Positions 3,616 to 25,453 of a stretch of 25,922 bases of DNA are shown one piece after another (position 1 is the first letter of the stretch; each line of letters opens with the position of its first letter). The position numbers and the translations under genes are program-made. The stretch is from IMG/VR virus record IMGVR_UViG_3300027533_000082, positions 1 through 25,922 of that record; one strand, 5' to 3'. The notes below the pieces were generated by a model that was not told the origin of the DNA, made no database searches, and saw only the letters and a list, made by a program, of their open reading frames with translations. The stretch comes from a virus. Lineage: Duplodnaviria; Caudoviricetes.

Positions 3616-5304
3616 ATGTCAAAAGACCTTGATCTTCTTCGGTGCGCCGACGCTCGCATTGACTCAATGTACCAAGACCGCTACTCGTGGTGGGTACACT
3701 GGGCAGAGCTTGCTCGGTACATTCTCCCTCGGCGCTATCGCTGGCTCGTCACCGCCAATCAGATGAACCGTGGGCAAGAGATCAATCAGGCTATCATCGA
3801 TTCCACTGGTACTGTGGCGGCAAGGGTCCTCGGCTCAGGCATGATGAGCGGAATGACCTCGCCAACGCGCCAGTGGTTTCGCTGTCGCATAAACGGCTTC
3901 GAGGGCGAAGAGACGCACCCCGTTAATGTGTGGCTCTCTGAGGTTCAGGCCCGGATGATGAGGGTGTTTCAAGAGTCGAACTTCTACAACGCCATCGCAG
4001 TGGTCTACATGGACATGGCTGTCTTTGGCACCGCCCCCATGCTGATCTACGAGGACTTCGAGAACGTCATCCACTGCCACAACCCCTGCGCGGGCGAATA
4101 CTTCGTAGCTAACAACGACCGTGGAGAGGTGGATGTATTCGCGCGGGAGTTCGTGCAGACCGTGGCACAGCTGGTCCAATGGTTCGGGGTGGAGAACTGT
4201 TCGAAGAACGTGCAGGACGCCTTCAAGGCCGGTGGGGCTCAGCTGCAGCAGGAGATCGTCATTCGGCACCTCGTCGAACCGAACCTGAGGAAAGAGAAGG
4301 TAGTCCCGGAGAAGTTCGCCTACCGCGAAATGTACTGGGAGAAGGGCGTCGCGGATCAGAAGAATATCTTCCTAACGAAGCGGGGATACCACGAGTTCCC
4401 ACTGATCTGCCCCCGTTGGGATATCTCTGGCAACGACGCTTATGGCCGGAGCCCCGGCATGGATGCACTGGGCGACATTAAACAGCTTCAGATGGAAACA
4501 AAGCGCAAAGCGCAGGTCATCGACAAGATGGCAAACCCTCCGATGGTGGCCGACGTGGAGCTGAAGAACGCGCCCGCGAGCACTATCCCCGGTGGCGTCA
4601 CCTACGTCGCGAAGAAAGACGGAGCGGGGTTCAAGCCCGCCTATGAGAACTTCCGCCCGCCAATCGTGGAGTTGATGAACGACATTCAAGACGTGCGGGA
4701 ACGCATCCGCTCGATCTTCTTCAACGACCTGTTCCTCATGTTCCAGCAGCTTGAAGCGGAGCCACGTTCCGCCACTGCTGTCGATGCCCGCCGAGAGGAA
4801 AAGATGGTCATGCTTGGACCAGTCCTCGAGCGGTTCCAAACCGAGGGCCTCGACAAGATCATCGACCGGACCTTCGCAATCATGGACCGAGCGGGCATCC
4901 TGCCTGAGGCCCCGGAAGAAATCCGCGACAAGAACATTCAGATCGAATACATCTCCATGCTGGCCGCAGCGCAGAAGGCCGTGGAGACCGCTGGCATCGA
5001 GCGCATCTTTGGCTTCGCGGGCAACATCGCTGCTCTCGATCCCAACGTGATGCTCAAGCTAAACGTTGACTACTCGATGGAGAAATACTCTGCCCTCTTG
5101 GGCAACGATCCGAAACTCTTGTTCCCGCAAGAGATGGTCGATAAGAAAAAGGCCGAGGCCGATAAGGCCAAGCAGATGCAATACCAAACTGAAATGGGTC
5201 TCGGTGCTGCCAAGGCCGGTAAGACCCTTTCAGAGACTGACGTTGGTGGCGGCGTGAACGCCATGCAAGCTATACTTGGTACAGCAGGAGTGCAACAGCC
5301 ATGA
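3616..5304 (+). CDS. Portal / head-to-tail connector (T7 gp8 / BPP-1 Bbp21-like)
   Basis: 562 aa; motifs WAELARYILP, GMTSPTRQWF, SNFY..FGTA, PRW..YGRSPGMDALGD, REEKMVMLGPVLER, IEYISMLAAAQK. Confidence 0.93.
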   Translation: MSKDLDLLRCADARIDSMYQDRYSWWVHWAELARYILPRRYRWLVTANQMNRGQEINQAIIDSTGTVAARVLGSGMMSGMTSPTRQWFRCRINGFEGEETHPVNVWLSEVQARMMRVFQESNFYNAIAVVYMDMAVFGTAPMLIYEDFENVIHCHNPCAGEYFVANNDRGEVDVFAREFVQTVAQLVQWFGVENCSKNVQDAFKAGGAQLQQEIVIRHLVEPNLRKEKVVPEKFAYREMYWEKGVADQKNIFLTKRGYHEFPLICPRWDISGNDAYGRSPGMDALGDIKQLQMETKRKAQVIDKMANPPMVADVELKNAPASTIPGGVTYVAKKDGAGFKPAYENFRPPIVELMNDIQDVRERIRSIFFNDLFLMFQQLEAEPRSATAVDARREEKMVMLGPVLERFQTEGLDKIIDRTFAIMDRAGILPEAPEEIRDKNIQIEYISMLAAAQKAVETAGIERIFGFAGNIAALDPNVMLKLNVDYSMEKYSALLGNDPKLLFPQEMVDKKKAEADKAKQMQYQTEMGLGAAKAGKTLSETDVGGGVNAMQAILGTAGVQQP

Positions 5305-5987
5305 ATGGAATGAGAGACACTAGACCACTCGTCGCCATCGGTCTGCCTTGCGGCGACATGATGCACAGTGAAACCGCGCAATGCATCTGGGGCATCGGGC
5401 GAGGAAACGCGAATTGTCGGCAGGGCATCGTGATGGCCCATAGCTCTATCGTGGCGAACGCGCGGAACAACTGCGTGGGTGGCGCTCAGCGAATCAACGC
5501 AGACTACATCATGTTCATTGACTCGGACATGATATTCCCTCCCAACACGATTGACCGGCTGTTGGCCCACAAGAAGGATATCGTGGGAGGGACTTACGTT
5601 CGGCGAGGCCCTCCTTTTGACAACTTAGGCTCAAGCATCCCCGAGCATATGGATCGCCAGTCAGGCCTCGTCGAAATGACTCATATGCCTACCGGAGTGC
5701 TTTTGATAAAGACTTCGGTCTTTGACAAGTTCAAGCGCCCGTACTTCCGCTACAGCATAGACGAGGATAAAGAACAGATCGGTGGCGAGGATATGCTCTT
5801 CTCCGAGATGGCCCGCGAGCGGGGCTTCCGAATCTTCTGTGACCTTGACTTGTCAAGCGAGCTGCGCCACATCTACACTTATATGCTTTCGCCCGTGGAC
5901 CCCTCGACCCGCGCCGTCGCGGATAACTTTAAGAAAGCCGAACTGGCCGAGAAGGCTAGACTGGTGGCCGCCAATGGCCGAGGATAA
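5301..5987 (+). CDS. GT-A fold glycosyltransferase (GT2-like)
   Basis: VAIGLP first strand, ARN, DXD motif YIMFIDSD, TGVLLIKTSVF, GED catalytic-base motif and C-terminal His; ATGA-coupled to the portal. Confidence 0.85.
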   Translation: MNGMRDTRPLVAIGLPCGDMMHSETAQCIWGIGRGNANCRQGIVMAHSSIVANARNNCVGGAQRINADYIMFIDSDMIFPPNTIDRLLAHKKDIVGGTYVRRGPPFDNLGSSIPEHMDRQSGLVEMTHMPTGVLLIKTSVFDKFKRPYFRYSIDEDKEQIGGEDMLFSEMARERGFRIFCDLDLSSELRHIYTYMLSPVDPSTRAVADNFKKAELAEKARLVAANGRG

Positions 5988-6282
5988 CCCATATGACTCC
6001 GGAGATCAAAAGGCGGTTGAAGCGGCAGCGAAAGCTGCGAAGCAAGCTGAGAAAGACCGAGTTGCCTTTCTCGAAAGCGCTATGTCCATACCGAATGGAA
6101 GGAAGTGGTTTTACGATCTACTTGCCCGCACCGGAGTGGGGCGGAATCCATACTCGGCGTCTGATCGAGGAACTGCATTTAGTTGCGGGGAACTCAACAT
6201 CGGACTGCCGATAATGGCTGACTTGCTAAACCACTGCCCGAAGATGTACCAGCTCATGATGGAGGAGAACTCAAATGGCTGA
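5974..6282 (+). CDS. Bbp19-like small head-module protein
   Basis: MS.PNGRKWFYDLL..TAFSCGELNIGL pattern and position between portal and scaffold. ATG 5974 preferred to the ORF-track start at 5782. Confidence 0.75.
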   Translation: MAEDNPYDSGDQKAVEAAAKAAKQAEKDRVAFLESAMSIPNGRKWFYDLLARTGVGRNPYSASDRGTAFSCGELNIGLPIMADLLNHCPKMYQLMMEENSNG

Positions 6283-6940
6283 AGCTGCACCTGCCCCGGC
6301 ACCCGACAAGCCAACATTCGCTGCCGAGCCCACTTCACTACTGAACCAGCCGCCCCCGGCTGATCCACCGAAGGACGGCGAGCCGCCAAAGGACCCTGCA
6401 CCGAAGGATGGCGAAAAGCCTCCGGAGAAGCCGCCTGAGGCCCCGCCCGTAATTGACCTCGCCGCAGTGAAGCTCCCGGAAGGGATCACCGCTGACGACG
6501 ATGCGTCCAAGGCTGCGATGAAATCCGCTTCGGAAATCCTCGCAGACGACAAACTGCCTCCGCAAGAACGGATGCAGAAGCTTATCGACGTTTATGGAGG
6601 TCTGGCTAAAGCCGCCGCAGACAGCAATGGCAAAGCATGGAACGACCTCCAAGACCAGTGGCAAACAGAAGTCAAAGCCGATCCTACTATCGGCGGCGAT
6701 AAGCTGGTTCCCACTCAGCAGATGATTTCAAAGGCAATCGATACGCTAGGCCCAGACAGCGCCAAGGCGTTTCGGTCCGCCCTCGACTTCACAGGTGCTG
6801 GAAACAACCCGGCTATCATCAAGGGCTTAGCGGCGTTCGCTAAGCTTGCGGTGGAGGGCGGGCACGTAACCGGGGCTCCTCCAAAGGTGGCACCCACCAC
6901 TGCGCAGGAGTTCTTTCCCAACTCACCTGAAATGAAGTAA
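6275..6940 (+). CDS. Capsid scaffolding/assembly protein
   Basis: Pro/Lys/Asp-rich disordered N-terminus, KLPEG, W..EVKADPTIGG and TGAGNNPAII motifs; SD GGAGGAG; directly before the major capsid gene. Confidence 0.8.
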   Translation: MAEAAPAPAPDKPTFAAEPTSLLNQPPPADPPKDGEPPKDPAPKDGEKPPEKPPEAPPVIDLAAVKLPEGITADDDASKAAMKSASEILADDKLPPQERMQKLIDVYGGLAKAAADSNGKAWNDLQDQWQTEVKADPTIGGDKLVPTQQMISKAIDTLGPDSAKAFRSALDFTGAGNNPAIIKGLAAFAKLAVEGGHVTGAPPKVAPTTAQEFFPNSPEMK

Positions 6941-9467: not shown

Positions 9468-11459
9468 ATGGCACTCCCGGCCCTTCTTCCAGGTGTTGAC
9501 ACCGTTACGTCAACAACGGAGTTTGAACCATCTGGTGATGGGCCGTGGAGTATTGTCGTTGCGTTGGACGGCGACCTTCACGAGCCGTTCTTCCCTGTCG
9601 GTGGGTCTGCGTTTATCGCTTGGCAGAAAGACAACAGCAATGTTTGGATTTTTGTTAAGATCAACGGATGGGACCCTGACACGCTGACGCTGAGCTTCAG
9701 CAAAGTTCTTTCCTCGGTCACTCCCACGACGACCACAGGCCCATACTCCGAATGGTTCGTGAGCGTGATCGACGGCCCACCTGAGGGCTTTCCGTTCCTC
9801 GGTATTATTGGGCTTCGCATTTCAATCGCCTCAGGCGCTAATGATTTCACAGTTAGTGCGGGCTCGATCCGCGACTCCACAGACACGGTGAACCTCACTC
9901 TTGATAGCGAGACAACAAAGTTCATCTCGAACGAGTGGTCTGCTGGGGATGGTGGCGGGGCTATTATTCGTTCAACTGATTTGCCTCTCGCCTTCGGCGG
10001 TGGTGGAACTATCTCAAGTTCCGGTGCTACTGTTGTTGGTGTTGGTACTAGGTTCCGCGACGACTTCGACGCGCGCTCCGCTATCCCTGACAAGAAGGGT
10101 GGATGGCTTAGAGACTTCACTCGGCAAGTTGCTGGGAGTGACACCTTTATTGGCAGTGTCTACTTCACCCCCGCGATCATCTCTTCCGGCGGGATCGATA
10201 CAACTGTCGTAGATGGATCAGTCACTAGTCAATCCGATCTAAGCACAACCGTCAACCTTGGCGTGACAGACGCGACTTATCGCCGGGGTGGTATCTGCGA
10301 TTGCACCTACGCTGTCGTTCTGATGCTGGCTGACGCTACTGGCGTCTGTGACGTTGGGGTTTCCTCCTTCACTGGTGATGGCGATGCTCCAGACCTACCT
10401 GTCGGTTACACCTACTGGCGCGTTCTCGGCGCACTGACAAAGACCGGGGCAGACCGGATCGTTTACCAACCTCTCTACGATCTGCTTGCAGACCCGAGCA
10501 AGCTCAACGCCCCGGACCCGTGGACTGTTGCTATCGGAGATATGTACTACGCGGCAGACACGGATAAGGCTAACGCGGCCCTGCCGATTGGTGACGAGGC
10601 CGATGTTCTCACAGTTGCCTCAGGACTTCCTGTATGGCTTCCACCGACGAGTGGTGGCGGGGTTGATGTTCAGACCTTTACCGGAAGCGGTACTTGGAAC
10701 AAGCCATCCTCTGGCACAGTCGCGCTGATTCGCTGTTGGGGCGGTGGGGCCTCAGGTGGTAAGGGAAGCTCGAGCCAGCCCGGATCAGGCGGTGGTGGTG
10801 CAGCTTGCAATCAACAGATTATCCCGTTGGCATTGCTTGGTTCAAGCGAGAGCGTGACTATTGGCGCGGGTGGCACTGGTCAGACAGTGGCTGACACAGC
10901 CGGAAATCCCGGTGGCACAACTACCTTCGGCGCTTTTGTAGCTGCTTATGGCGGTGGTGCTGGCAATCGCGGTGGCACAGGTGCTGGTGGTGGTGGCGGC
11001 GGTGGTACTGGCGGTGTTGGTCAGATCGGGACTACTGGCGGTGGCGCTGGGCCGTTTGCGGGTGGCGCTGGTGGTTTCGGCTATGCCGCTCCTCAACCCA
11101 GTACTGAAGGTGGTGGTGGTACAGGCGGCATTGGCGGTGCCACTACCGATGCGACTGCTGGCAGAACTGGTGGGTTGAACGGCGGTGGCGGTGGTGGTGG
11201 AGGCATGGACGGCGCGGGTGTAGCTGCACAGGTTAAAGGTGGCGATGGTTATTGGGGAGGCGGAGGCGGTGGTGGTGGTGCCAACTCCGTCACAGGCGGC
11301 AGCGGTGGACTGTCACAGTTTGGTGGTGCTGGCTCTGCTGGTACAATCGACACTAACGCAAGCTCGAATGGCTCTGTCCCCGGTGGCGGATCAGGCGGAA
11401 CGGAAGGCGGTAACTCTGGTAATGGCGGCGCGGGCAAGTGCATCGTGTATGTTTGGTGA
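9468..11459 (+). CDS. Modular fibre/spike-like protein with a C-terminal glycine-rich domain
   Basis: 663 aa; fibre-type modules (DSTDT..WSAG..PVGYTYWR; GDMYYA..LPIG..VLTVASGLPVW) and a Gly-rich domain from QTFTGSGTWNKP..CWGGGASGG to GGAGKCIVYVW. Confidence 0.75.
   Translation: MALPALLPGVDTVTSTTEFEPSGDGPWSIVVALDGDLHEPFFPVGGSAFIAWQKDNSNVWIFVKINGWDPDTLTLSFSKVLSSVTPTTTTGPYSEWFVSVIDGPPEGFPFLGIIGLRISIASGANDFTVSAGSIRDSTDTVNLTLDSETTKFISNEWSAGDGGGAIIRSTDLPLAFGGGGTISSSGATVVGVGTRFRDDFDARSAIPDKKGGWLRDFTRQVAGSDTFIGSVYFTPAIISSGGIDTTVVDGSVTSQSDLSTTVNLGVTDATYRRGGICDCTYAVVLMLADATGVCDVGVSSFTGDGDAPDLPVGYTYWRVLGALTKTGADRIVYQPLYDLLADPSKLNAPDPWTVAIGDMYYAADTDKANAALPIGDEADVLTVASGLPVWLPPTSGGGVDVQTFTGSGTWNKPSSGTVALIRCWGGGASGGKGSSSQPGSGGGGAACNQQIIPLALLGSSESVTIGAGGTGQTVADTAGNPGGTTTFGAFVAAYGGGAGNRGGTGAGGGGGGGTGGVGQIGTTGGGAGPFAGGAGGFGYAAPQPSTEGGGGTGGIGGATTDATAGRTGGLNGGGGGGGGMDGAGVAAQVKGGDGYWGGGGGGGGANSVTGGSGGLSQFGGAGSAGTIDTNASSNGSVPGGGSGGTEGGNSGNGGAGKCIVYVW
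10735..11435 (+). repeat. Low-complexity GGT/GGC glycine-codon runs
   Basis: Many (GGT/GGC)n tracts encoding GGGGGGG segments. Confidence 0.8.
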
Positions 11460-16093: not shown

Positions 16094-19000
16094 TGGCAAA
16101 GGTTCCATATAAGGGGTCTCCGAGCGTTGACGCTTCGATGACGCCTCTGCCTCCGCAGAATATGCCGCACGTCGATCTGTCGGGTCCGGGGCAAGAGCTG
16201 GCCAATCTTGGTAAGTCCTTCCAAGGCCTCGGTGCCTCGATCACGGCCAATCAGGTCGCGATGCAGGGCCGCCAGAACGAGGCTGTGGTCAGCGATCTCG
16301 TTGTGCAAGCTGACACTGAGATGGGGCTTAACCACGCTGACTACAGCTCGCTGCAAGGCGAGACTAAGATGACGGAGTACGATCCTTATGTAAAGAAGCA
16401 AGAGGAAACCGCACAACGCTGGCAGCTAAAGGCTGATAGCTACGGAAATCCAGAGGTGTCTCGTCGGTTCAGGATGCACCTTGATCCGAAGCTTGGAGCC
16501 TATGTGGTTAGGGGTGCGACAGAGAAGGGCGTCGCACAGAAAGACTATGAGAACAAATCAGCTATTGCTCTTGAAAATAATGCAGTCGATGACGCGCACG
16601 CTAACTACAAAGACGATTATGCCTTTGATCGAAGCATGAACGCTGTTCGTCAGTCCGTTGACTCTCGTGCGAAAACGATGGGCTGGGATGAAGAACAGAA
16701 GAAAGCTGAAATGAGGCGGGCCACTGATCGAGTGTTCGATGCTCGTGTCAGGGGTTATGCGAGACAAGACCCAACAACCGCACGAAAGATTCTGGACGCA
16801 AATCGCTCGATAATCGGTGGCAAGACTCAGATCGATCTTGACTTGCATCTTAACGAGCAGGATGCAAACATCAAGTCTCTAAATGACGGTGATTACTTTC
16901 GGGATCATGGTGAGTGGCCTGATGCTGCCCCGGTCGTAGTCCAACCCGATGCGCCCGGACCTCGAAGCGAGGCCGCTCCAGTTGACGGGGTATCCCCTGC
17001 TCAACAAGTCGCAGCAGTGAAAGGTGATGATCCCGCGCAAATTGCGGAAGATGCATCAAAGCCTCCGGTTGAAGGACAACTCCAGCCCGGAGCGCCCGCA
17101 GCACCTGATCAAAAGCAAGACGCAAGCATTGGTTCGGAAGAACTGATCGGGGAGAAGGGTGTCCAGTACGCACAGGCAGACACGGGAACAAAGTCTGATG
17201 CGAGCGGCTATGAGCTGACTAACCCTGTTCAGAAGGGTGATCCAAAGGATCAGTTCGAGGTAACTCACCCACTTCAAAAAGGTGATCCGAGAGAGCAATA
17301 CGAGGCGAAGCCACTTAAGATGGCTGCGCTTGGTCCGTTGAAGGATCAAGGCCCAAGGCCGTCGAAATACTCTGGCGAGATTTCACTGGGCGACAGCAAG
17401 TTCTCCTTTGTCAGCGGCGGCGGTCGAACCCCCTCTGCGCCTTACGGCACCTACCCGATCACACCGGGGAAGGAAGGGCCGATTATCAGGCAGATGGGTG
17501 GAATCACGCTGAACAACAACGTGGTCTGGGACCCTGCATTAGGCCGGGACCGCCACGGTATTGCCTTCCACCCCGCTCAGGGCGCAGACCAATCCGCGGG
17601 CTGTTTCATCATTCCCGATGGACAGTGGCCGAAGTTCAAAGCCGAGCTGCAATCGAAGATGCAGACCGAGGGACCACAGTACCTGACTGTGAACCCGGAC
17701 GGAAGTGCGTTTATCTCCGGTAAGCCGGGGCGGCTTGCCAATGATCCTATCGGTTCCCCGACTAAGTCCTTCGGGCTGAACCAGAAGCGGATTAACGAGG
17801 TCACTCAAAGCCCCCATGGACAGACCATTATCACGGAGGCGAATAAGCTCGGTTACGACACCAACAAGCTTCTGACGTACATCTCGATTGAGAGCAGCGG
17901 TAATCCGCGGATGGTAACTGGAAGTTATTATGGGCTTGGACAACTCTCGAAAGAGGAGTTCGCGAAGTACAGTTCTCCCGGTGAGAACATCTATGATCCC
18001 GGCGCGAACACTCGCGCGACGATCAAGCTGTTGCAAGCCAACTCAGCGATGTTCGAGAAGAAGTTTGGCAGGGAGCCATCTTCGACTGAGCTGTATATGA
18101 TCCATCAGCAGGGATGGGGCGGGGCACAAGCGCACTTCGCAAACCCCGATCGCCCTGCATGGCAGAATATGGCTTCGACGAAGGAAGGCAGGGAGAAGGG
18201 TGAGAAGTGGTCGAGAGATGCGATCTGGGGAAACCTCACAGATAAGGAAAAGAAGCAGTACGGCTCTGTTGAGAACGTAAGGTCAGCGGACCTTGTCGGC
18301 ACGTTCGAGCGGAAGATCACGGGCAATGGATACTCACCCGCAGATCAGGGCACAGCTATTGCGTGGGATGCTTCGCAGGGGGACAGCGCTCAACGGACTG
18401 GACTGATCCCAACACGGCTGACCTCTCCGACCGCTCGCGGCATGGCTATTCCGACTCGTGTAGGCGAGGGCGTCCGCGCCAGTGACCAGACTGCGATGGT
18501 TGTCACGCCACCGGCTGACGCATCCCCCGCAGCTATTGACACTCACATCAACAAGTTCCTTGAACAGAACGCTCTCGCCCCCGGAGATGTGTTTAAGGTT
18601 CAGAACCCTGATGGTGGACAGCAAGCTTATGAGGTCACAGCATCGGAGAGTGGGGAGAAGAGCTATAAGAAGGCTGAGATGCTCTCTGGTGAGGGCGGCG
18701 CTATCCAGTATGCCCAAGCCGATACTGGAACCGTCTCTGACGCCAGCCCGAATGTTGGGAACGACGTCACTCCGGTGCCCGCCGACAAAGGGCCAGCCGT
18801 TTCTCCCGGCCCACTGCGAAAGGACTCCGATCAGAAGTGGCTCGACCAAGCTTTGATTATGGCTGAAGAACGCGCGAATAAGGTTGCACCCGGAAATATC
18901 AAGTATAAGGATAATCTGAGGCGGAAGCTTATCACCGACTTCTATCAGGCACAGCGGATGGGTGTTCAGGAACAGCGGGCGAATTATAACAACGTGTTCG

Positions 19001-19737
19001 CTGCTGTCATGGGCGACTATGACGAGAAGATGATCCGCTCGATGGATCAGATTTATGCGAACCCAGTTCTGCACGAGTCATATAAACAGCTAGATCGAGC
19101 AAGGCAGACTCAGATCGACGCACAAGTTGCGGCCAACTCGAAGAAAGACCTTTTGCCTACGCCAGAGCGGGATGCGCGGGCTGACTATCTGACAGGATTG
19201 GCAGGAGATGATCCGGATGCGTTCTTGGACGAGCCGCTTACAGGCATGACTAAGAAAGATATTGAGAGACTGTTTAAGATGAAGCTGAACATTAAAAAGC
19301 ATCTGACAGAGAACCGCGCTACGCAGACCGCTCTCCGTGATGTAGGCAGACTTGTCAAAGCTGCTGGCATTGAGCAGTTCGGTGATGATGAAGAAGTGAA
19401 GGTTTACACTGAGTTCGCTGGTGCGATGCATAACAAGGTGCAAGAGTTTATACAAGATAATAAGAGAAAGCCTAACTGGGAAGATGCACAGAAGATTGCG
19501 ACGCAACTTCTTGCGCCGAAGGGTGGCGAGAAGAGGTTCCTCGATCCAAGGACTTGGTTCAACGATAGCACTCCGAAGTTCCAAGCCCCGAGTAGTTGGA
19601 CCGGCCCGGATGGAGTTAAGCGTTCTAAGGATGAGTGGGTGAAGGAGTTCCAGCTTAGGAAGCAGCGCCCACCGACTCCGAGTGAAATAAACAAACTCTG
19701 GCAGGACAGTACAGGCAATGCCCGTAACCAACCTTGA
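16093..19737 (+). CDS. Internal virion (ejection) protein, gp15-like position, with L,D-transpeptidase-like (Tlde1/DUF2778-type) and lytic transglycosylase domains
   Basis: Helical N- and C-terminal parts; SG..P.GTY..R.GIAFH-x7-SAGC (~17370-17700); IESSGNP / GLGQ / LYMIHQQG (~17820-18320). Confidence 0.8.
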   Translation: MAKVPYKGSPSVDASMTPLPPQNMPHVDLSGPGQELANLGKSFQGLGASITANQVAMQGRQNEAVVSDLVVQADTEMGLNHADYSSLQGETKMTEYDPYVKKQEETAQRWQLKADSYGNPEVSRRFRMHLDPKLGAYVVRGATEKGVAQKDYENKSAIALENNAVDDAHANYKDDYAFDRSMNAVRQSVDSRAKTMGWDEEQKKAEMRRATDRVFDARVRGYARQDPTTARKILDANRSIIGGKTQIDLDLHLNEQDANIKSLNDGDYFRDHGEWPDAAPVVVQPDAPGPRSEAAPVDGVSPAQQVAAVKGDDPAQIAEDASKPPVEGQLQPGAPAAPDQKQDASIGSEELIGEKGVQYAQADTGTKSDASGYELTNPVQKGDPKDQFEVTHPLQKGDPREQYEAKPLKMAALGPLKDQGPRPSKYSGEISLGDSKFSFVSGGGRTPSAPYGTYPITPGKEGPIIRQMGGITLNNNVVWDPALGRDRHGIAFHPAQGADQSAGCFIIPDGQWPKFKAELQSKMQTEGPQYLTVNPDGSAFISGKPGRLANDPIGSPTKSFGLNQKRINEVTQSPHGQTIITEANKLGYDTNKLLTYISIESSGNPRMVTGSYYGLGQLSKEEFAKYSSPGENIYDPGANTRATIKLLQANSAMFEKKFGREPSSTELYMIHQQGWGGAQAHFANPDRPAWQNMASTKEGREKGEKWSRDAIWGNLTDKEKKQYGSVENVRSADLVGTFERKITGNGYSPADQGTAIAWDASQGDSAQRTGLIPTRLTSPTARGMAIPTRVGEGVRASDQTAMVVTPPADASPAAIDTHINKFLEQNALAPGDVFKVQNPDGGQQAYEVTASESGEKSYKKAEMLSGEGGAIQYAQADTGTVSDASPNVGNDVTPVPADKGPAVSPGPLRKDSDQKWLDQALIMAEERANKVAPGNIKYKDNLRRKLITDFYQAQRMGVQEQRANYNNVFAAVMGDYDEKMIRSMDQIYANPVLHESYKQLDRARQTQIDAQVAANSKKDLLPTPERDARADYLTGLAGDDPDAFLDEPLTGMTKKDIERLFKMKLNIKKHLTENRATQTALRDVGRLVKAAGIEQFGDDEEVKVYTEFAGAMHNKVQEFIQDNKRKPNWEDAQKIATQLLAPKGGEKRFLDPRTWFNDSTPKFQAPSSWTGPDGVKRSKDEWVKEFQLRKQRPPTPSEINKLWQDSTGNARNQP
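17164..18747 (+). repeat. Dispersed 14-aa direct repeat QYAQADTGT(K/V)SDAS at 17164-17205 and 18706-18747
   Basis: 13 of 14 residues identical; 9 of those 13 codons differ at the third position. Confidence 0.9.
17209..17319 (+). repeat. 15-aa tandem repeat, about 2.5 copies
   Basis: YELTNPVQKGDPKDQ / FEVTHPLQKGDPREQ / YEAKPLK. Confidence 0.85.
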
Positions 19738-22700
19738 TGATCTTTTTAACAACGCAGTGGACCCAGTAAGTCCACTCGACGAGTTGTTCAAGCCTTATAA
19801 GCCCGCGTCTCCTGTGAGACAACAGGCGGTTGGGGACAGCCTTGCTAACCCTGAAAACGCAGCGAAAGCGTTGAAACTTGGGAAGCAAATGAACACCGCG
19901 CCTGTGGTGGTCGAGGGCGATCCGACGCTATTCGAGAACGATCTGAAGGCGCAGCAAGCTGCGACGGCTTCGGAGAACCCTGCCATTGCGAAATACATCG
20001 CTGGCAATCCGATGGCCGCGAAGGTGTCGAATGATGACTGGGAAGTGATGAAAACGATCTCGGACAAGCTTGATTGGGCCGAGGCGGCAACTGGGAGTAT
20101 CTTCGATCACACCCTTCAGGGTTTTAAGCAGGGCTTTGGCCCCGGCGCACTGGGTATGTCAGACGAGAACAGGCGGAATTATCCGTTGACAGCCACGTTG
20201 GCGCAGCCCTTTCTCGCCCCGATCGATCTCGCTCTTCGCGGGCTTCGCGGAAGTGTCGGTGGGCTCGCAGCCCTTGGTGGTGAAACCGCTCGACAGACCG
20301 GGGAGTGGAAATATACAGTAGACCTGCCCCTCTTTGGCAAGCAGACGTTTGAAATGAACGACGCTTGGGCGAACCGGCTTGAGCGGGACTTGCGAATGGG
20401 TATCGAGATGGGCCTTGTCGAGGCTGGCAAGCCCGGCATGGGACCAACTGGGTTTACCCCGAAAGGCCTGAATAATCTCGCGAAAGAGGCCACGAAGGAT
20501 CGGCTGCGAGTTGATGCTGGTGATCTCACTGTTAAGGAGTTCCTCGGTACTGCGGAGGGGATCAAGTCGAGGAAGGAGATCGACGACTACATCGCTGGAA
20601 GAGAAGCGCCACCGGCACCATTGCGGCTCAGTCCTCCTGCGGAAGTAATGATCAGGAATGGGGAGATGCCACCCCCTAAGATGGACCCGATCATTGACGA
20701 ACTTCATATTATGCAGCAGGGGCTTGACTTAGCCCAATTCGACTCTGCTTACAAAACCATTCAAACGGAGTCTAAAACGCAGGGCCGCTCGCCGGATATG
20801 ATGGCGGAGTTTCTTGGGCATAAAACTGGGGACCGACAGGTTTATATCCCTGCCGATAAGGTGGTGGAACTGTACGAGTCTGCGAAAGATGTTAGCAAGG
20901 TGGGCGATCCAACTGACGGTGTATTTGGGTATGTGCCTGATCTAATGGATCAGCTTGTCCGTGCCGGGGCGACTGGAGGGGATATCGCGATCCCTATGTC
21001 GGAGTTCCTCGCGCGAACGGATGAAAAGACTTATGAGGCGGTGAAGGACTCGATTAGGTTTAGGAAAGAGGGGATCACGGCGGAAGAAGGGAAGGAGCTG
21101 AAAGCCTGGCATGGTACGGCAAATGAGGTTGATAAGTTTAAGACAGAAAAGATTGGAACCGGGGAAGGGGCTGCGTCGTATGGACATGGGCTATACTTTG
21201 CAGAGAATAAAGCAGTTGGGCAAGAGTATGCCAATAATCTCGCTCGTGCACGACACGAGCCTGCGCCCGAAGGAAGCATTGCTGATAAGGTTTATAAGCT
21301 TTTAGAGGCTGGTGATCTTCAGTGGGGCGATATTACAAAACTTCATGGAGGAGTTCTTGATACAGAGAACTCAGGTTATGTTAATTTCCCTGACAAATCA
21401 TCTATGTATGCCACTCCTGAGTATTGGGAACCAATTAAGACCCCGACAAGAAATCTTTATGAGGTTAATCTTAAGGTAGATAAAAACCTGTTGCTTGATT
21501 GGGATAAGCCTCTTAACGAACAAACACCTGAGGTTATCGCAGCACTGAAAAAGGCTGGCATAGACGTATCAGATGCTACCAGTGGTGAAGATGCATATCA
21601 TCAGTTGGTAAATATTCACGGAAAGTTAATGTCCCCGAATGATAGGGGAATGCGTTATAGCACTGGACCGAAAGAAGCTTCGAGAGTTTTGAAAGAGGCT
21701 GGTATTCAGGGGATCAAGTATTTTGACCAAGGGTCTCGCCCAGACTTTAGCCCAAAGTCCACAAGAGACGCACTGGCAGATCGAAAGAAGAACCCGGACC
21801 TTTATTCAGATAACGATACAGCAATTCCAATGCTTGAGGCTGATCTTGCAAAGTTAGAAAAAGCGACCAGTAACTTTGTTATCTTTGACGAGAGCAAAAT
21901 TGAGATTCTTTCCAAGAACGGCGAGCCCGCCAACATCTCGAAAGAAGAACGGGAGCAGATTCTTAAGCCGGGGCCGAAAGAGACCGATTTCGACGAAGAT
22001 GTTATGTCAGCGGAGGACCTGCAAAAGGACGCCGAGCTAGATATGGCGGGCATGGATGCGCTTACGCCCGAGACACCAGCCGAGGCCGCTGTCAAGGCAG
22101 TGAAGAAATCCCTCTATCTCGAACCGATGATAAAGGACGGAAAGACCGTCAACATAACTCAAGGCGAGTTCTCGAAATACTCGAAGAAGATTGAGACCGC
22201 AGACGCGAAGGCCGCTGAGAAGGTCGCTGCTGCGGCGGAACGAGAAGCAAAAAGGCGGCTGACGCCGGAGTGGAAAAAGAATGAGGCAGAGATTCGCGCG
22301 GAAGTCGAGTCTGATCTCCGGAGCCGTCCGGATATTGCTGCTGATACTTATTTTAGAACTGGTAAACTCCCAACAGGAGAACAGCGCCCGCGCCCGTACC
22401 TTAATCGGGACGCTGTCGAGACTCTTATTGGCCCGCGTCTACGCTCTATTACGAGTTCTACTGGAGTTCTTCCAGACGAAATTGCGCCATTCCTCAACTT
22501 TGAGAACGGTGCGGAACTTGTTAAGTCTTTAGACTTGCTCCACTTCGCGCGCGAGGCGAATAAGGAATCCGCGGACGCTTACATCAAGCGAGTGGTAGAT
22601 CAGGAAACCGAACTTCGGATGAACGATAAGTACGGCGATCTAGAGCAGGCTATCGCAAACGCCGCGAGCGAGGCCGCACAGGACGCTGCGAGACTCGATA

Positions 22701-25453
22701 TTCTTATCGATGAGCTAAAGTATATCTCAGATGCGGCTGGTGTTGCCCCTGTCTCGAAAGAGGCATTGGTGAACTTTGCTAGAGAGATGTTCAGTCAGCA
22801 GAAGGTAAAGAACATCTCGTATGAAGTCGCGAGACGGAATACGGAAAAGTCTGGGCGGGCAACTGAAAAGGCACTGCTGTCCGGGAAGTTCGACGAGGCA
22901 CTGAAAGAGGTTGAGAGGAGGGTGCTTTCCTTCCTTGAGGCGAAGCTGTCAAAGGCTTTCGAGCGAGAGAATAAGTCAGACCGAAGAAGGTTCGACCGAC
23001 TGGGTGGGGATGAAACAATTAAGAGTATTGACCAGCAGTACCTGAACCAGATTCATGTGCTTCTAGCCCGTGTCGGCCTCGATGTTTCTCGGTCGGAGCA
23101 GAGCCTTGGTCATGCCGCACGGGTTCCACTGGAAACCTTCATCGCTGCGAAAGAGGCAGACGGTCATCTTATGATCCGGCCTGATCTTCCAGCGAAGAAC
23201 TCTTATGAGGAGTTCACTGTTGACGAGGCCCGCGCCTTCGCGAATGTGATTAAGAACCTTGAGCACATTGGGAAGGAACAGAAAAGTATTCAGGTTGGGA
23301 AGGACAAAGAGGCCTACGAAACGGCAGTAGCTAGGGCAATCTCCAATCTCGATGCGATGGCCGGGAAGTTCGACCCGAAGGGAAAGAGCAAAATACGCTC
23401 GATAAACAGTTATCTTGTAAAGATGGAACAGCTGTTTGATTGGGCCGACGCTCGTGACCATAATGGTCCCTTTAACCAGATTGTTTTCAGGCCGCTTAGC
23501 GAAGCGAAGCACTGGAAGTCGGATAAGATTAGAGAGGTCGGTGCCGCGCTCAATGCTATTCCTTCCTCGTTCGAGTGGAGGAAGGGCTTGTATGAGCGGG
23601 TTGAGAATAAGACCCTGATCGATCCAAGAAACGACCAGCCGATGGTCCTTAATCGCGAGGCCATGCTTGCGATTGCGCTGAACTCTGGGAGCAAGAGCAA
23701 CTTCGGTGTGCTGACTAAGGGGTATAAATGGGACCCTGAGGACGTTCATCGATTTCTCACTGAGAATATGACGAAGGAAGATATTGCCTATGTCAATGGT
23801 GTCTGGAAGATGTTTGCAGATCACCTTCGGGATGATATCTCGCGAGTGACTGAGCAACTCTCCGGAGTCCCAGTCGATCTCGTTGACGCTGTGCCGTTCA
23901 ATACCAAGGGTGGAGAAGCCACGGGCGGATACTATCCGTTAATCGCGGATAGACTGCACTCGCTTGAGCATCGAGCCTCTAAGATAGAGTTGGAGGCGTT
24001 TGAATACTCCCCACTTCCATCTCCTCGCGCGACAAAGGAACGGACTGGTGCGGCGTATCCTCTTCAGTTAGATATCTCCGGGCTTCCGGGAAGGTTGAAT
24101 GAGACCATTCATAACCTTGCTTACCGTGCGCCACTGATTAACGCGAAGAAGTTTCTGGATGATCCACTAGTCCGTGAGGTTTTCACCAACGCCTTCGGAC
24201 AGGAATACACTGAACTGCTTACACCATTTATGCAGCGAGTTGCCAAAGGTGGCTATGGTGATGATATCGGTGCGCTTGCACAGTTAAGCCAGTTCGTTCG
24301 TATGAACGCACAAGGTATGATGATCGGCTTTAACCCTGGGACTATCGTGATCCACGGTGGCGCTGCGGCGGCGAACTCCATCGCAGAGGTTGGGTTCATG
24401 CCACTGATTAGGGCAGCGCATCCGGCCTTGAGAGAAGCTATCGGTGCCAAGATCAATGACTTTTTCTCAAGTGAGGAAAGGGCAATGACGATGACTGAGG
24501 AGGCTTATGCTCAGTCAGGTGAATTAAGGAACAGGCGGCACTATATCGATGACAACCTGAACGCAATGGCGGAGCAGGTGTTGAGACAGAGCAGCGTGCT
24601 TGAGGCCGGGGCGCACCTGTTGAAGGGAAACCTTAGCTTGACAGAAGCCAAAGATGTTCTCATGAACGCGAGACAGCGGCTCTTGATCTTCTCCATGAGC
24701 GGGGTTGCCCATTTCGATCAAATGTCTGCAGTACCGACTTGGCTGGCGATCAGGGATCGAGCGTTACTGGATGGAAAGGAATTGCCCGAGGCTATTTACA
24801 TGGCGGATAAGGCTGTGCGTAACGCCCACGGAGCCAACGGACTGATCGACACTGCACGGATTCAGAATGTGGGCGAGATTATGAAGTGGTTTACCATGTT
24901 CTATGGGTACTTCAGCCATAACTATAATCGTAACTTCGATACGGTGAAGGTGATTCAGGGCAAAACCCCACCACCTGCTGACGGCGGGAAGTTTATGACT
25001 TCGTTCTCTCGAGCATTTTGGTACTTGGTCATTCCTGCGCTGATCCATGAAGCGATTAGAGGACATGGTGATGGGAAGGAGAACCCATTGCAGTGGATCG
25101 CTGGAACACTTTCAACCCAACTCCTTGGAATGTTCCCGTTCGCCAGAGATGTATCTTTTGCCGTGTCCTCTGGAAGGCAAGCATCTTCCACACCTCTAGG
25201 TGATGTTGCACAGGGCTATGCCGCGGTGGCTACTGATGTGCTAAAGGCACTGAATGTCATGGAAGGCAAGCCCTCGAAGCTATGGTTACAGCACGCGCTT
25301 GATCTGCCGGGGTACTCTGTTGGAATAGGGACTCGGACAACCTCTCGTGCGAGTCAGTTCTTGTTCGATACTGCTGCGGGTAAGCAGCATCCTCAAGACG
25401 GTGTAGAATATCTTCGGGGACTTATCACTGGAAAGGCAAAGGCTCACAAATGA
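19718..25453 (+). CDS. Large internal virion/ejection protein (gp16-like position, polyvalent-protein type) with an inserted ADP-ribosyltransferase-like domain
   Basis: 1911 aa, mostly helical, with hydrophobic segments near the C-terminus; AWHGT..GTGEGAASYGHGLYFAE..LYEVNL..GIQGIKY..NFVIFD at ~21101-21920. Confidence 0.82.
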   Translation: MPVTNLDDLFNNAVDPVSPLDELFKPYKPASPVRQQAVGDSLANPENAAKALKLGKQMNTAPVVVEGDPTLFENDLKAQQAATASENPAIAKYIAGNPMAAKVSNDDWEVMKTISDKLDWAEAATGSIFDHTLQGFKQGFGPGALGMSDENRRNYPLTATLAQPFLAPIDLALRGLRGSVGGLAALGGETARQTGEWKYTVDLPLFGKQTFEMNDAWANRLERDLRMGIEMGLVEAGKPGMGPTGFTPKGLNNLAKEATKDRLRVDAGDLTVKEFLGTAEGIKSRKEIDDYIAGREAPPAPLRLSPPAEVMIRNGEMPPPKMDPIIDELHIMQQGLDLAQFDSAYKTIQTESKTQGRSPDMMAEFLGHKTGDRQVYIPADKVVELYESAKDVSKVGDPTDGVFGYVPDLMDQLVRAGATGGDIAIPMSEFLARTDEKTYEAVKDSIRFRKEGITAEEGKELKAWHGTANEVDKFKTEKIGTGEGAASYGHGLYFAENKAVGQEYANNLARARHEPAPEGSIADKVYKLLEAGDLQWGDITKLHGGVLDTENSGYVNFPDKSSMYATPEYWEPIKTPTRNLYEVNLKVDKNLLLDWDKPLNEQTPEVIAALKKAGIDVSDATSGEDAYHQLVNIHGKLMSPNDRGMRYSTGPKEASRVLKEAGIQGIKYFDQGSRPDFSPKSTRDALADRKKNPDLYSDNDTAIPMLEADLAKLEKATSNFVIFDESKIEILSKNGEPANISKEEREQILKPGPKETDFDEDVMSAEDLQKDAELDMAGMDALTPETPAEAAVKAVKKSLYLEPMIKDGKTVNITQGEFSKYSKKIETADAKAAEKVAAAAEREAKRRLTPEWKKNEAEIRAEVESDLRSRPDIAADTYFRTGKLPTGEQRPRPYLNRDAVETLIGPRLRSITSSTGVLPDEIAPFLNFENGAELVKSLDLLHFAREANKESADAYIKRVVDQETELRMNDKYGDLEQAIANAASEAAQDAARLDILIDELKYISDAAGVAPVSKEALVNFAREMFSQQKVKNISYEVARRNTEKSGRATEKALLSGKFDEALKEVERRVLSFLEAKLSKAFERENKSDRRRFDRLGGDETIKSIDQQYLNQIHVLLARVGLDVSRSEQSLGHAARVPLETFIAAKEADGHLMIRPDLPAKNSYEEFTVDEARAFANVIKNLEHIGKEQKSIQVGKDKEAYETAVARAISNLDAMAGKFDPKGKSKIRSINSYLVKMEQLFDWADARDHNGPFNQIVFRPLSEAKHWKSDKIREVGAALNAIPSSFEWRKGLYERVENKTLIDPRNDQPMVLNREAMLAIALNSGSKSNFGVLTKGYKWDPEDVHRFLTENMTKEDIAYVNGVWKMFADHLRDDISRVTEQLSGVPVDLVDAVPFNTKGGEATGGYYPLIADRLHSLEHRASKIELEAFEYSPLPSPRATKERTGAAYPLQLDISGLPGRLNETIHNLAYRAPLINAKKFLDDPLVREVFTNAFGQEYTELLTPFMQRVAKGGYGDDIGALAQLSQFVRMNAQGMMIGFNPGTIVIHGGAAAANSIAEVGFMPLIRAAHPALREAIGAKINDFFSSEERAMTMTEEAYAQSGELRNRRHYIDDNLNAMAEQVLRQSSVLEAGAHLLKGNLSLTEAKDVLMNARQRLLIFSMSGVAHFDQMSAVPTWLAIRDRALLDGKELPEAIYMADKAVRNAHGANGLIDTARIQNVGEIMKWFTMFYGYFSHNYNRNFDTVKVIQGKTPPPADGGKFMTSFSRAFWYLVIPALIHEAIRGHGDGKENPLQWIAGTLSTQLLGMFPFARDVSFAVSSGRQASSTPLGDVAQGYAAVATDVLKALNVMEGKPSKLWLQHALDLPGYSVGIGTRTTSRASQFLFDTAAGKQHPQDGVEYLRGLITGKAKAHK

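Follow-up and report, generated by a model that had tools for sequence, protein, structure and literature searches.

An open question about short-tailed phages is how their wall-digesting enzymes come to be activated and positioned only once ejection has occurred; the divergence among ejection proteins is too great for them to be compared. The locus described here raises this question through a predicted protein of 1214 aa, in which two near-identical 14-aa segments lie on either side of a block of putative enzymatic domains. In a preliminary description of this DNA, the segments were regarded as a functional pair enclosing exchangeable cargo. The comparisons presented below indicate that they belong to an undescribed, host-like short linear motif of injected proteins, broader in occurrence than such a pair of bookends.

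Gene Order and Domain Organization

The window (the whole stretch of 25,922 nucleotides that was analyzed, 25.9 kb) represents a complete virus record with genes for terminase, portal, GP7 capsid, Bbp16, adaptor, and nozzle proteins of the BPP-1 type. The Bbp11 slot is occupied by the 1214-aa ORF, with the nozzle gene and two small internal-virion genes on its 5′ side and the gene of a 1911-aa protein on its 3′ side; PHROG matches upstream were phrog_376, 308, and 418. The ORF follows the adaptor and nozzle genes and precedes the gene of the largest internal protein, as is the case for podovirus ejection proteins of the gp15/Bbp11 slot, and because of this Bbp11-like slot its product was taken to be an ejection protein. 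Pfam, PHROG, and tblastn matches of the protein itself were confined to its lytic transglycosylase (SLT) domain, the helical halves having no match to a characterized ejection protein. A locus search with the N-terminal half returned one near-identical contig and nothing else. Feature coordinates are collected in Table 1.

The slot, which follows the nozzle gene and the small internal-virion genes, is shared with BPP-1 Bbp11 and with the epsilon15- and T7 gp15-gp16-type systems. Helical halves combined with an SLT domain are likewise reminiscent of gp15-gp16-type ejection proteins with virion-associated hydrolases. What sets the window protein apart from the BPP-1 Bbp11 type is a long disordered insert that holds three cargo domains. 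None of the five regions searched for the 14-aa motif (BPP-1, DC33, RpY1, TRX32-1, and Polewnik) yielded a match.

Several other ORFs of the window were also annotated. The 1911-aa protein (19718-25453) contains LPD22 (aa 35-116) and ART-PolyVal (aa 456-507, slightly below the cut-off) and resembles a polyvalent-type largest ejection protein; it lacks the motif. A 663-aa Gly-rich, tail-fibre-like ORF (9468-11459) precedes the adaptor and nozzle genes instead of trailing the ejection genes. A glycosyltransferase-2-like ORF (5301-5987), located between the portal gene and a Bbp19-like gene, may serve in modification of the virion or the host surface. The preliminary description had seen no protease gene in the window, and the Pfam search of all 19 ORFs agreed with this, yielding no protease match. 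A 221-aa ORF in the scaffold position (6275-6940) matched PHROG 458, labelled "protease", yet had no Pfam match, and no protease domain was detected in it.

Table 1. Features of the 1214-aa protein and its coding region in the window.
Feature	Residues	Position	Strand	Basis or remark
Predicted ejection (internal virion) protein, 1214 aa		16093..19737	+	Slot and BPP-1 gene order
N-terminal conserved half, common to P0002-P0004		16093..16902	+	34-58% identity
Additional short linker motif, GPRSEA	aa 289-294	16957..16974	+	4 observed vs. 0.6 expected
Motif copy 1, QYAQADTGTKSDAS	aa 358-371	17164..17205	+	Predicted disordered, pLDDT about 30
Tandem repeat, 2.3 units × 15 aa, [YF]E.T.P.QKGDP..Q	aa 373-408	17209..17316	+	Sequence
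Half-motif KMAALGP (first half alone), directly before first cargo domain		17317..17337	+	KVASIGP at equivalent place in P0002
Putative L,D-transpeptidase/Tlde1-like domain	aa 414-546	17332..17730	+	Weak assignment
Lytic transglycosylase (SLT) domain	aa 561-746	17773..18330	+	Glu600 at expected catalytic position
Small alpha/beta domain, no family	aa 801-862	18493..18678	+	AlphaFold fold
Motif copy 2, QYAQADTGTVSDAS	aa 872-885	18706..18747	+	Predicted disordered, pLDDT under 50
C-terminal conserved half, common to P0002-P0004		18799..19737	+	33-45% identity

An AlphaFold model covering aa 340-900, built on a shallow alignment of 17 rows, predicted three folded domains (aa 414-546, 561-746, and 801-862) and placed both motif copies below a pLDDT of 50. 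The second domain is a lytic transglycosylase: the Pfam match (E 1e-3) was accompanied by a fold match to phiKZ gp144 (Z 15.4, rmsd 2.8, 159 aligned), and in the predicted lysozyme-like fold Glu600 takes the position of the catalytic Glu that ends the second helix. The first domain was only weakly assigned as L,D-transpeptidase-like. Its YkuD match (E 0.0037) was below the Pfam cut-off, and two homologues gave Tlde1_dom matches at E 0.002 and 0.008. It contains H493..S501-A-G-C504-F, with a His-Cys spacing of 11 compared to 10 in Tlde1a and with Ala in place of the middle His of (S/T)HGC, and neither Foldseek (E ≤ 0.001, model with pLDDT 71) nor phmmer matched a solved L,D-transpeptidase. The third domain belongs to no Pfam family and is missing from the orthologues P0002-P0004. 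The cargo listed in the preliminary description was confirmed for the SLT domain, the small familyless domain, and the repeat, its L,D-transpeptidase part remaining weak (sub-threshold YkuD, no structural match).

The two copies, QYAQADTGTKSDAS and QYAQADTGTVSDAS, are identical at 13 of 14 residues, and their flanks show no similarity. In 88,644 shuffles, the best 14-residue self-match reached 10 after global shuffling and 11 after shuffling in 40-aa blocks (44,322 each), so the repeated segment first noted at these positions stands. The pair was not among the repeat families listed by DNA repeat finders on the window, and a search of the ESM Atlas with aa 345-385 gave nothing usable. Synonymous codons differ at 9 of the 13 identical residues, compared to 8.5 expected from independent draws. 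The codons show selection at the peptide level, and the motif is probably functional, both as had been proposed; since the observed and expected differences nearly coincide, an old duplication and convergence are indistinguishable.

Conservation among Relatives in the Same Slot

In the orthologue P0002, the first motif copy is good and the second is decayed. P0003 and P0004 retain both conserved halves and the first cargo domain, the second domain being different, and they carry half-motifs alone, with no full-scoring motif. In L070, L073, and P0019, a cargo unlike that of the window protein lies between two copies of the motif; L070 and L073 have scaffold, small internal-virion, and nozzle genes in common with the window, and their second copy has a longer spacer. 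In another family (L061, P0016, and P0018), the motif flanks a lysozyme.

Because P0002-P0004, L070, and L073 differ in cargo and share the slot or the halves, cargo is exchanged in the Bbp11-type slot; the motif often brackets this cargo and has been both gained and lost. The claim of a paired bookend around swappable cargo thus held for the window, L070/L073/P0019, L061/P0016/P0018, and, with a degenerate second copy, P0002.

Two further segments were found in the linkers. The pattern G[PQK]R[ST][ED]A, to which GPRSEA of the window protein belongs, was also found in L003, L070, L073, L089, L196, P0002, P0003, and P0013. It occurs upstream of the main motif in relatives and in some unrelated carriers, at a distance of 16-75 aa in several of them. 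A small domain (GNIDL..RP.VKN.DGSIST.R...) with no Pfam match directly follows the motif in L003, L018, L070, and L073.

Occurrence and Consensus of the Motif

DNA was first scanned for exact QYAQADTG and then with relaxed DNA patterns. The exact scan returned two unrelated phage contigs in which the match continued into TxSDA or TxTDA, unasked by the pattern. The relaxed scans returned 26 and 77 viral, 32 genomic, and at least 119 metagenomic stretches. After removal of duplicates, 168 rows (77, 26, and 65) were available; 30 were dropped by eye (ORFs that were short or in the wrong frame, rows in which −5 was polar, Haemophilus RnfC, a repeat of the Bacteroidetes type, and one duplicate), and 137 ORFs were left. 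These at least 137 carriers formed at least 72 families upon motif-masked clustering (over 40% coverage), or 36 groups when any shared domain was allowed to link them.

Among the matches listed, the consensus was [VTI]-Q-[YLVF]-A-x-[AL]-[DN]-T-G-T-x-[TS]-D-A, with the two halves separated by a spacer of 0-4. The Q, A, TGT, and DA positions were imposed by the search patterns, and these apparently invariant positions are for that reason no independent evidence. At the free positions of 114 distinct sites, −7 was V, T, or I in 73, −5 was Y, L, V, F, or M in 108, and −2 was A or L in 89. Codons of the motif were fully mixed across carriers, and a mobile repeat acting at the DNA level was rejected on this ground.

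Other searches were of limited yield. A motif-profile search of 1.84 billion representatives gave no match at E ≤ 0.001, the profile being too short; a word-index search with the motif alignment gave 8 matches among 8000 scored, of which P0022 was spurious. Neither tblastn with 20-aa motif peptides against cultured phages and plasmids, an insensitive method for this purpose, nor motif profiles against PDB sequences returned a match or anything meaningful, respectively. No description of the motif was found in the literature searched, which was mostly open-access and rarely searched by motif letters; supplements of toxin surveys could show it.

A second full copy was present in 3 of the 72 family representatives listed (0.0 expected), and the other 69 had a single copy. 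Bracketing is accordingly the layout of a minority, and a bookend specific to this cassette is not supported, since portal-toxin fusions and bacterial exported proteins carry the motif too. The same count bears on the narrow form of the original proposal, a paired device peculiar to this ejectosome that acts by autoprocessing or by self-pairing of the copies. The near-identity of the copies here and the pairs in two further families would suit such a device; the prevalence of single copies speaks against it, as does the AlphaFold model, which leaves both copies disordered, albeit from a shallow alignment of 17 rows. We consider it scarcely credible.

Viral Carriers and Their Cargo

The motif is carried by proteins that occupy the ejection slot in several podovirus types, by fusions of a portal with an RNase toxin, and by proteins that bacteria export, as well as by one RHS and one PAAR-like effector and by a protein resembling DarB. 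In 22 of 38 viral family representatives, the preceding gene matched PHROG categories tail, head closure, virion structural, or DNA ejection (in five of the 38, the range covered contained no long gene upstream), and genes so placed were read as presumable ejection slots.

Pfam domains in the carriers comprised SLT, lysozyme, amidase, Hydrolase_2, VanY, M23, and VgrG3-type domains. Of 24 hydrolase-bearing carriers, some of them related, 16 had the motif no more than 80 aa away from a peptidoglycan hydrolase, compared to 6.4 expected; it was C-terminal to the nearest hydrolase domain in 21 of the 24, several again being related. A single motif follows an N-terminal hydrolase by 7-33 aa in L004, L135, L202, and P0020, and precedes a C-terminal lysozyme by 19 aa in L177. 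Internal cargo is bracketed by the motif in three families, and an internal hydrolase is accompanied by one full copy alone in L015, L016, L022, L051, and L060.

These distributions make it hard to regard the segment as devoid of a specific function, as either a product of linker sequence grammar or DNA spread via recombination. Fast turnover of the motif among orthologues and the weakness of the half motif as a pattern would be in keeping with that view; the convergence of the free positions, the mixed codons, the 72 families listed, and the non-random position beside hydrolases oppose it, and it is given very little credence.

An 18-member carrier family is made up of portals that are extended at the C-terminus and of orphan modules, the motif preceding an RNase or another variable tail. 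It resembles the MuF and other phage-head polymorphic toxins (PMC5576092, PMC3482391) in that a linker joins the portal to a C-terminal toxin that varies, with orphan modules in addition. The difference is that the toxin is fused to the portal instead of to MuF, and the window protein itself is no such toxin. The word "motif" is absent from the main text of PMC5576092. In the fusions L093:2927-5122, L131, L133, L033, L044, L105, and L036, the tails include CdiA-like RNase A and ribonuclease domains, with orphan modules downstream, and a conserved segment, PDQPRVPAG..GGQWT, follows a Lys upstream. In a further set of phage proteins of 390-450 aa (L028:7350-8525, L043:2105-3466, and L065), TonB-box-like strands form an array after the motif. 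L185 was considered as a TonB-dependent receptor, and Pfam assigned it a beta-propeller instead.

That carriers are mostly virion-internal proteins could indicate a signal on the phage side, either a packaging tag or a procapsid site for a phage maturation protease. Portal-toxin fusions would need release from the portal, and few hosts have the full motif, which was found in 8 genomes out of 301 and in 6 out of 300 with the seeds included. Against this, the carriers come from unrelated head and tail types, the motif also occurs on exported host proteins, just one of the four ejection-slot ORFs of the window has it, no protease domain was found in the window, and the PDQPRVPAG..GGQWT segment could fill the role in the portal fusions. 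A signal of this kind is rated as unlikely.

Bacterial Carriers and the Half Motif

Named genomes with the motif belong mainly to Alphaproteobacteria, with additional beta-, gamma-, zeta-, and delta-type members. The cellular carriers comprise an NlpD-type LysM-M23 lipoprotein, CoxII, autotransporters, a BapA-prefix protein, and small secreted proteins. In autotransporters, the motif is located between passenger and barrel, a loop that is periplasmic. Approximately 9-13 chance matches were expected in the genome collection, compared to the 32 stretches seen, so that single host matches may be due to chance. The profile search behind the two host frequencies given above (the order of G001 and the class of G003) matched three NlpD-type proteins, three two-domain cytochromes c, one RlpA-type protein, two autotransporters, one sulphur-transport protein, and four chance-like proteins.

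Two groups of carriers should be mentioned separately. L204 and L211 are HEAT-repeat and protein-kinase proteins with the motif in a linker and are apparently cytoplasmic, contrary to a periplasmic reading. L145, L179, and L217 are secreted proteins of 105 aa with no Pfam family and with the motif near an aromatic C-terminus.

The half motif was defined as the first half, [QRKE]-Phi-A-small-aliphatic. It was present in 20 of the 29 NlpD linkers parsed from 30 loci (25 matches vs. 3.3 expected) and in 17 of 24 TolA segments (31 matches vs. 5.3 expected, 10 of them being one recurring AALLNK-like segment). Linkers of NlpD, TolA, and CoxII contain several half-sites each, from which Ser/Thr is often missing. 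Export bias was evaluated with 1291 predicted proteins from 1.6 Mb of two genomes (G021 and G022), using home-made gene and signal-peptide calls. No enrichment was observed in 196 signal-peptide proteins (26 vs. 22.3 expected); 748 cytosolic proteins gave 85 matches vs. 61.7 in the shuffle, and 28 Hydrolase_2 proteins showed no clear enrichment (6 vs. 3.3 expected). The half motif is consequently not supported as a general mark of exported proteins or as a mark of all wall enzymes, and the cytosolic excess together with the lack of clear enrichment in the other two sets makes it, taken alone, a weak signal.

Exported linkers are typical targets of O-glycosylation, and an enzyme of the host or the phage might attach glycans to the Thr/Ser residues of the motif or modify them in some other way. 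Three Thr/Ser within a Pro/Ala/Gly-rich linker and the glycosyltransferase-2-like ORF of the window would accord with modification. On the other side, virion proteins are made in the cytoplasm, remote from periplasmic transferases, Ser/Thr is often lacking in the host half-sites, and none of the 64 motif-bearing viral loci has a homologue of the 5301-5987 ORF, although most loci may end short of it. Modification is rated as very unlikely.

Comparison with Known Signals

Several known signals were compared with the motif. The colicin TolB and TonB boxes are likewise short motifs in a disordered region of a protein entering via the periplasm, and a T-G-x-x-S-acid core is shared. The TolB box has the core DG(S/T)GWSSE, whose Trp contacts TolB, according to the section of PMC2821528 dealing with it. 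The phage motif differs in having no Trp, an Asp one place closer, an extra Q-Phi-A half, and an occurrence on host proteins. Since the TolB box needs the Trp, which is absent from the window copies (Thr stands there in 114 of 114 sites, a position fixed by the pattern), the motif was rejected as a TolB box.

The TonB box is a strand of the form acid-x-hydrophobic-x-V-T-A/G; it had no match in the window protein and five among the 72 representatives listed, four of them in L043, and the motif was rejected as a TonB box too. Signal peptidase I cuts at A-x-A right after a membrane-anchored hydrophobic segment. The sites here are internal to polar linkers and have Ala at −2 in just 53 of 114, and this signal was rejected as well.

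In an HtrA-type site-1 cleavage, DegS cuts RseA at V148/S149 (PMC7400510); the residue before the cut is small and aliphatic and the one after it is small, similar to the cut proposed below for Q-Phi-A. The corresponding rule, a small aliphatic P1 and a small P1′ in an unfolded periplasmic stretch, agrees with the Ala followed by A, Q, or S in 90 of 114 sites and is too loose to discriminate. The residues flanking V148/S149 presumably also resemble the motif.

Docking without cutting has to be weighed at this point: the motif would mimic a host ligand and tether the ejected protein or toxin to some periplasmic protein (for instance a chaperone or a protein of the Tol system or of division) and so place the hydrolases at the wall, comparable to the way in which TolB and TonB boxes serve colicins. 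Its two halves with a spacer of 0-4, the multiple half-sites per linker in NlpD, TolA, and CoxII, and the expectation that host linkers remain intact would suit docking, as would the motif ahead of the TonB-box-like array in the L028/L043 family and the loose likeness of T-G-x-x-S-D to the TolB-box core (PMC2821528, in the part cited above). Docking is opposed by the missing TolB-box Trp, by 30 tolB loci in which no ORF had a motif match above 1 bit, and by the recurrence of one segment in 10 of the 31 TolA matches; moreover, it names no partner and leaves the bracketing of internal cargo unnecessary. It comes close to cutting, since the motif is bipartite, half-sites are repeated, and host linkers should mostly stay whole, and it is judged possible but rather unlikely.

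Proposed Role of the Motif

The reading favored here, tentatively and with less than even confidence, is that the motif would be a site for a host periplasmic protease that frees the adjoining cell-wall enzymes after ejection. The 1214-aa protein, going by its gene slot, would be ejected into the periplasm, where a host factor may read the motif in the disordered linker, as its spread across phage types and its presence in host proteins suggest. This factor would then cut, probably beside the Ala of Q-Phi-A, so that the neighboring cell-wall enzymes are released and the helical halves remain in the channel. As the cargo of this phage is internal to the chain, two sites would be needed for its excision; cargo at a chain end would require one, which is the layout of many single-copy carriers.

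A host partner was preferred to a phage enzyme or autoprocessing because the motif spans unrelated phage types and host envelope proteins. A protease was preferred because terminal cargo has one copy, on the inward-facing side, internal cargo is bracketed in some cases, and P22 gp20 offers a precedent: this ejection protein may have to be cleaved by an enzyme of the host, as suggested in a passage of a review (PMC8954989). The case here differs from both P22 gp20 and RseA in that 13 residues recur across unrelated families. The convergent free positions, the mixed codons, the proximity to hydrolases, and the copies on exported host proteins all count in favor of cutting.

When considering the opposite side, certain inconsistencies with cutting were noted. 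Many internal hydrolases stand beside a single full copy (the five carriers named above), P0003 and P0004 have no full copy, and cutting seems unhelpful in the loops of host CoxII, cytochrome c, and autotransporters. A stretch of 13 residues whose spacer varies and whose half-sites are repeated resembles a docking motif more than a protease site. RNase toxins act in the cytoplasm, beyond the reach of a periplasmic protease, and the half motif was unenriched in signal-peptide proteins and not clearly enriched in Hydrolase_2 proteins.

In a wider form, an undescribed proteobacterial periplasmic system would read a bipartite linker tag on its own wall-remodelling proteins of the NlpD and RlpA types. 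Unrelated podoviruses by the dozen, toxins fused to portals, and type VI effectors would have converged on a strong version of this tag, and the host itself would cut loose or position their enzymes once they are injected. We regard this as a real possibility, approaching but not reaching an even chance.

A 13-residue tag on many unrelated families amounts to one bait toward the host factor and may point to a host dependency common to phages and antibacterial toxins. The motif can serve as a marker to annotate ejection genes of uncultured phages, and it may reveal that wall enzymes of bacteria bear a control signal so far unknown.
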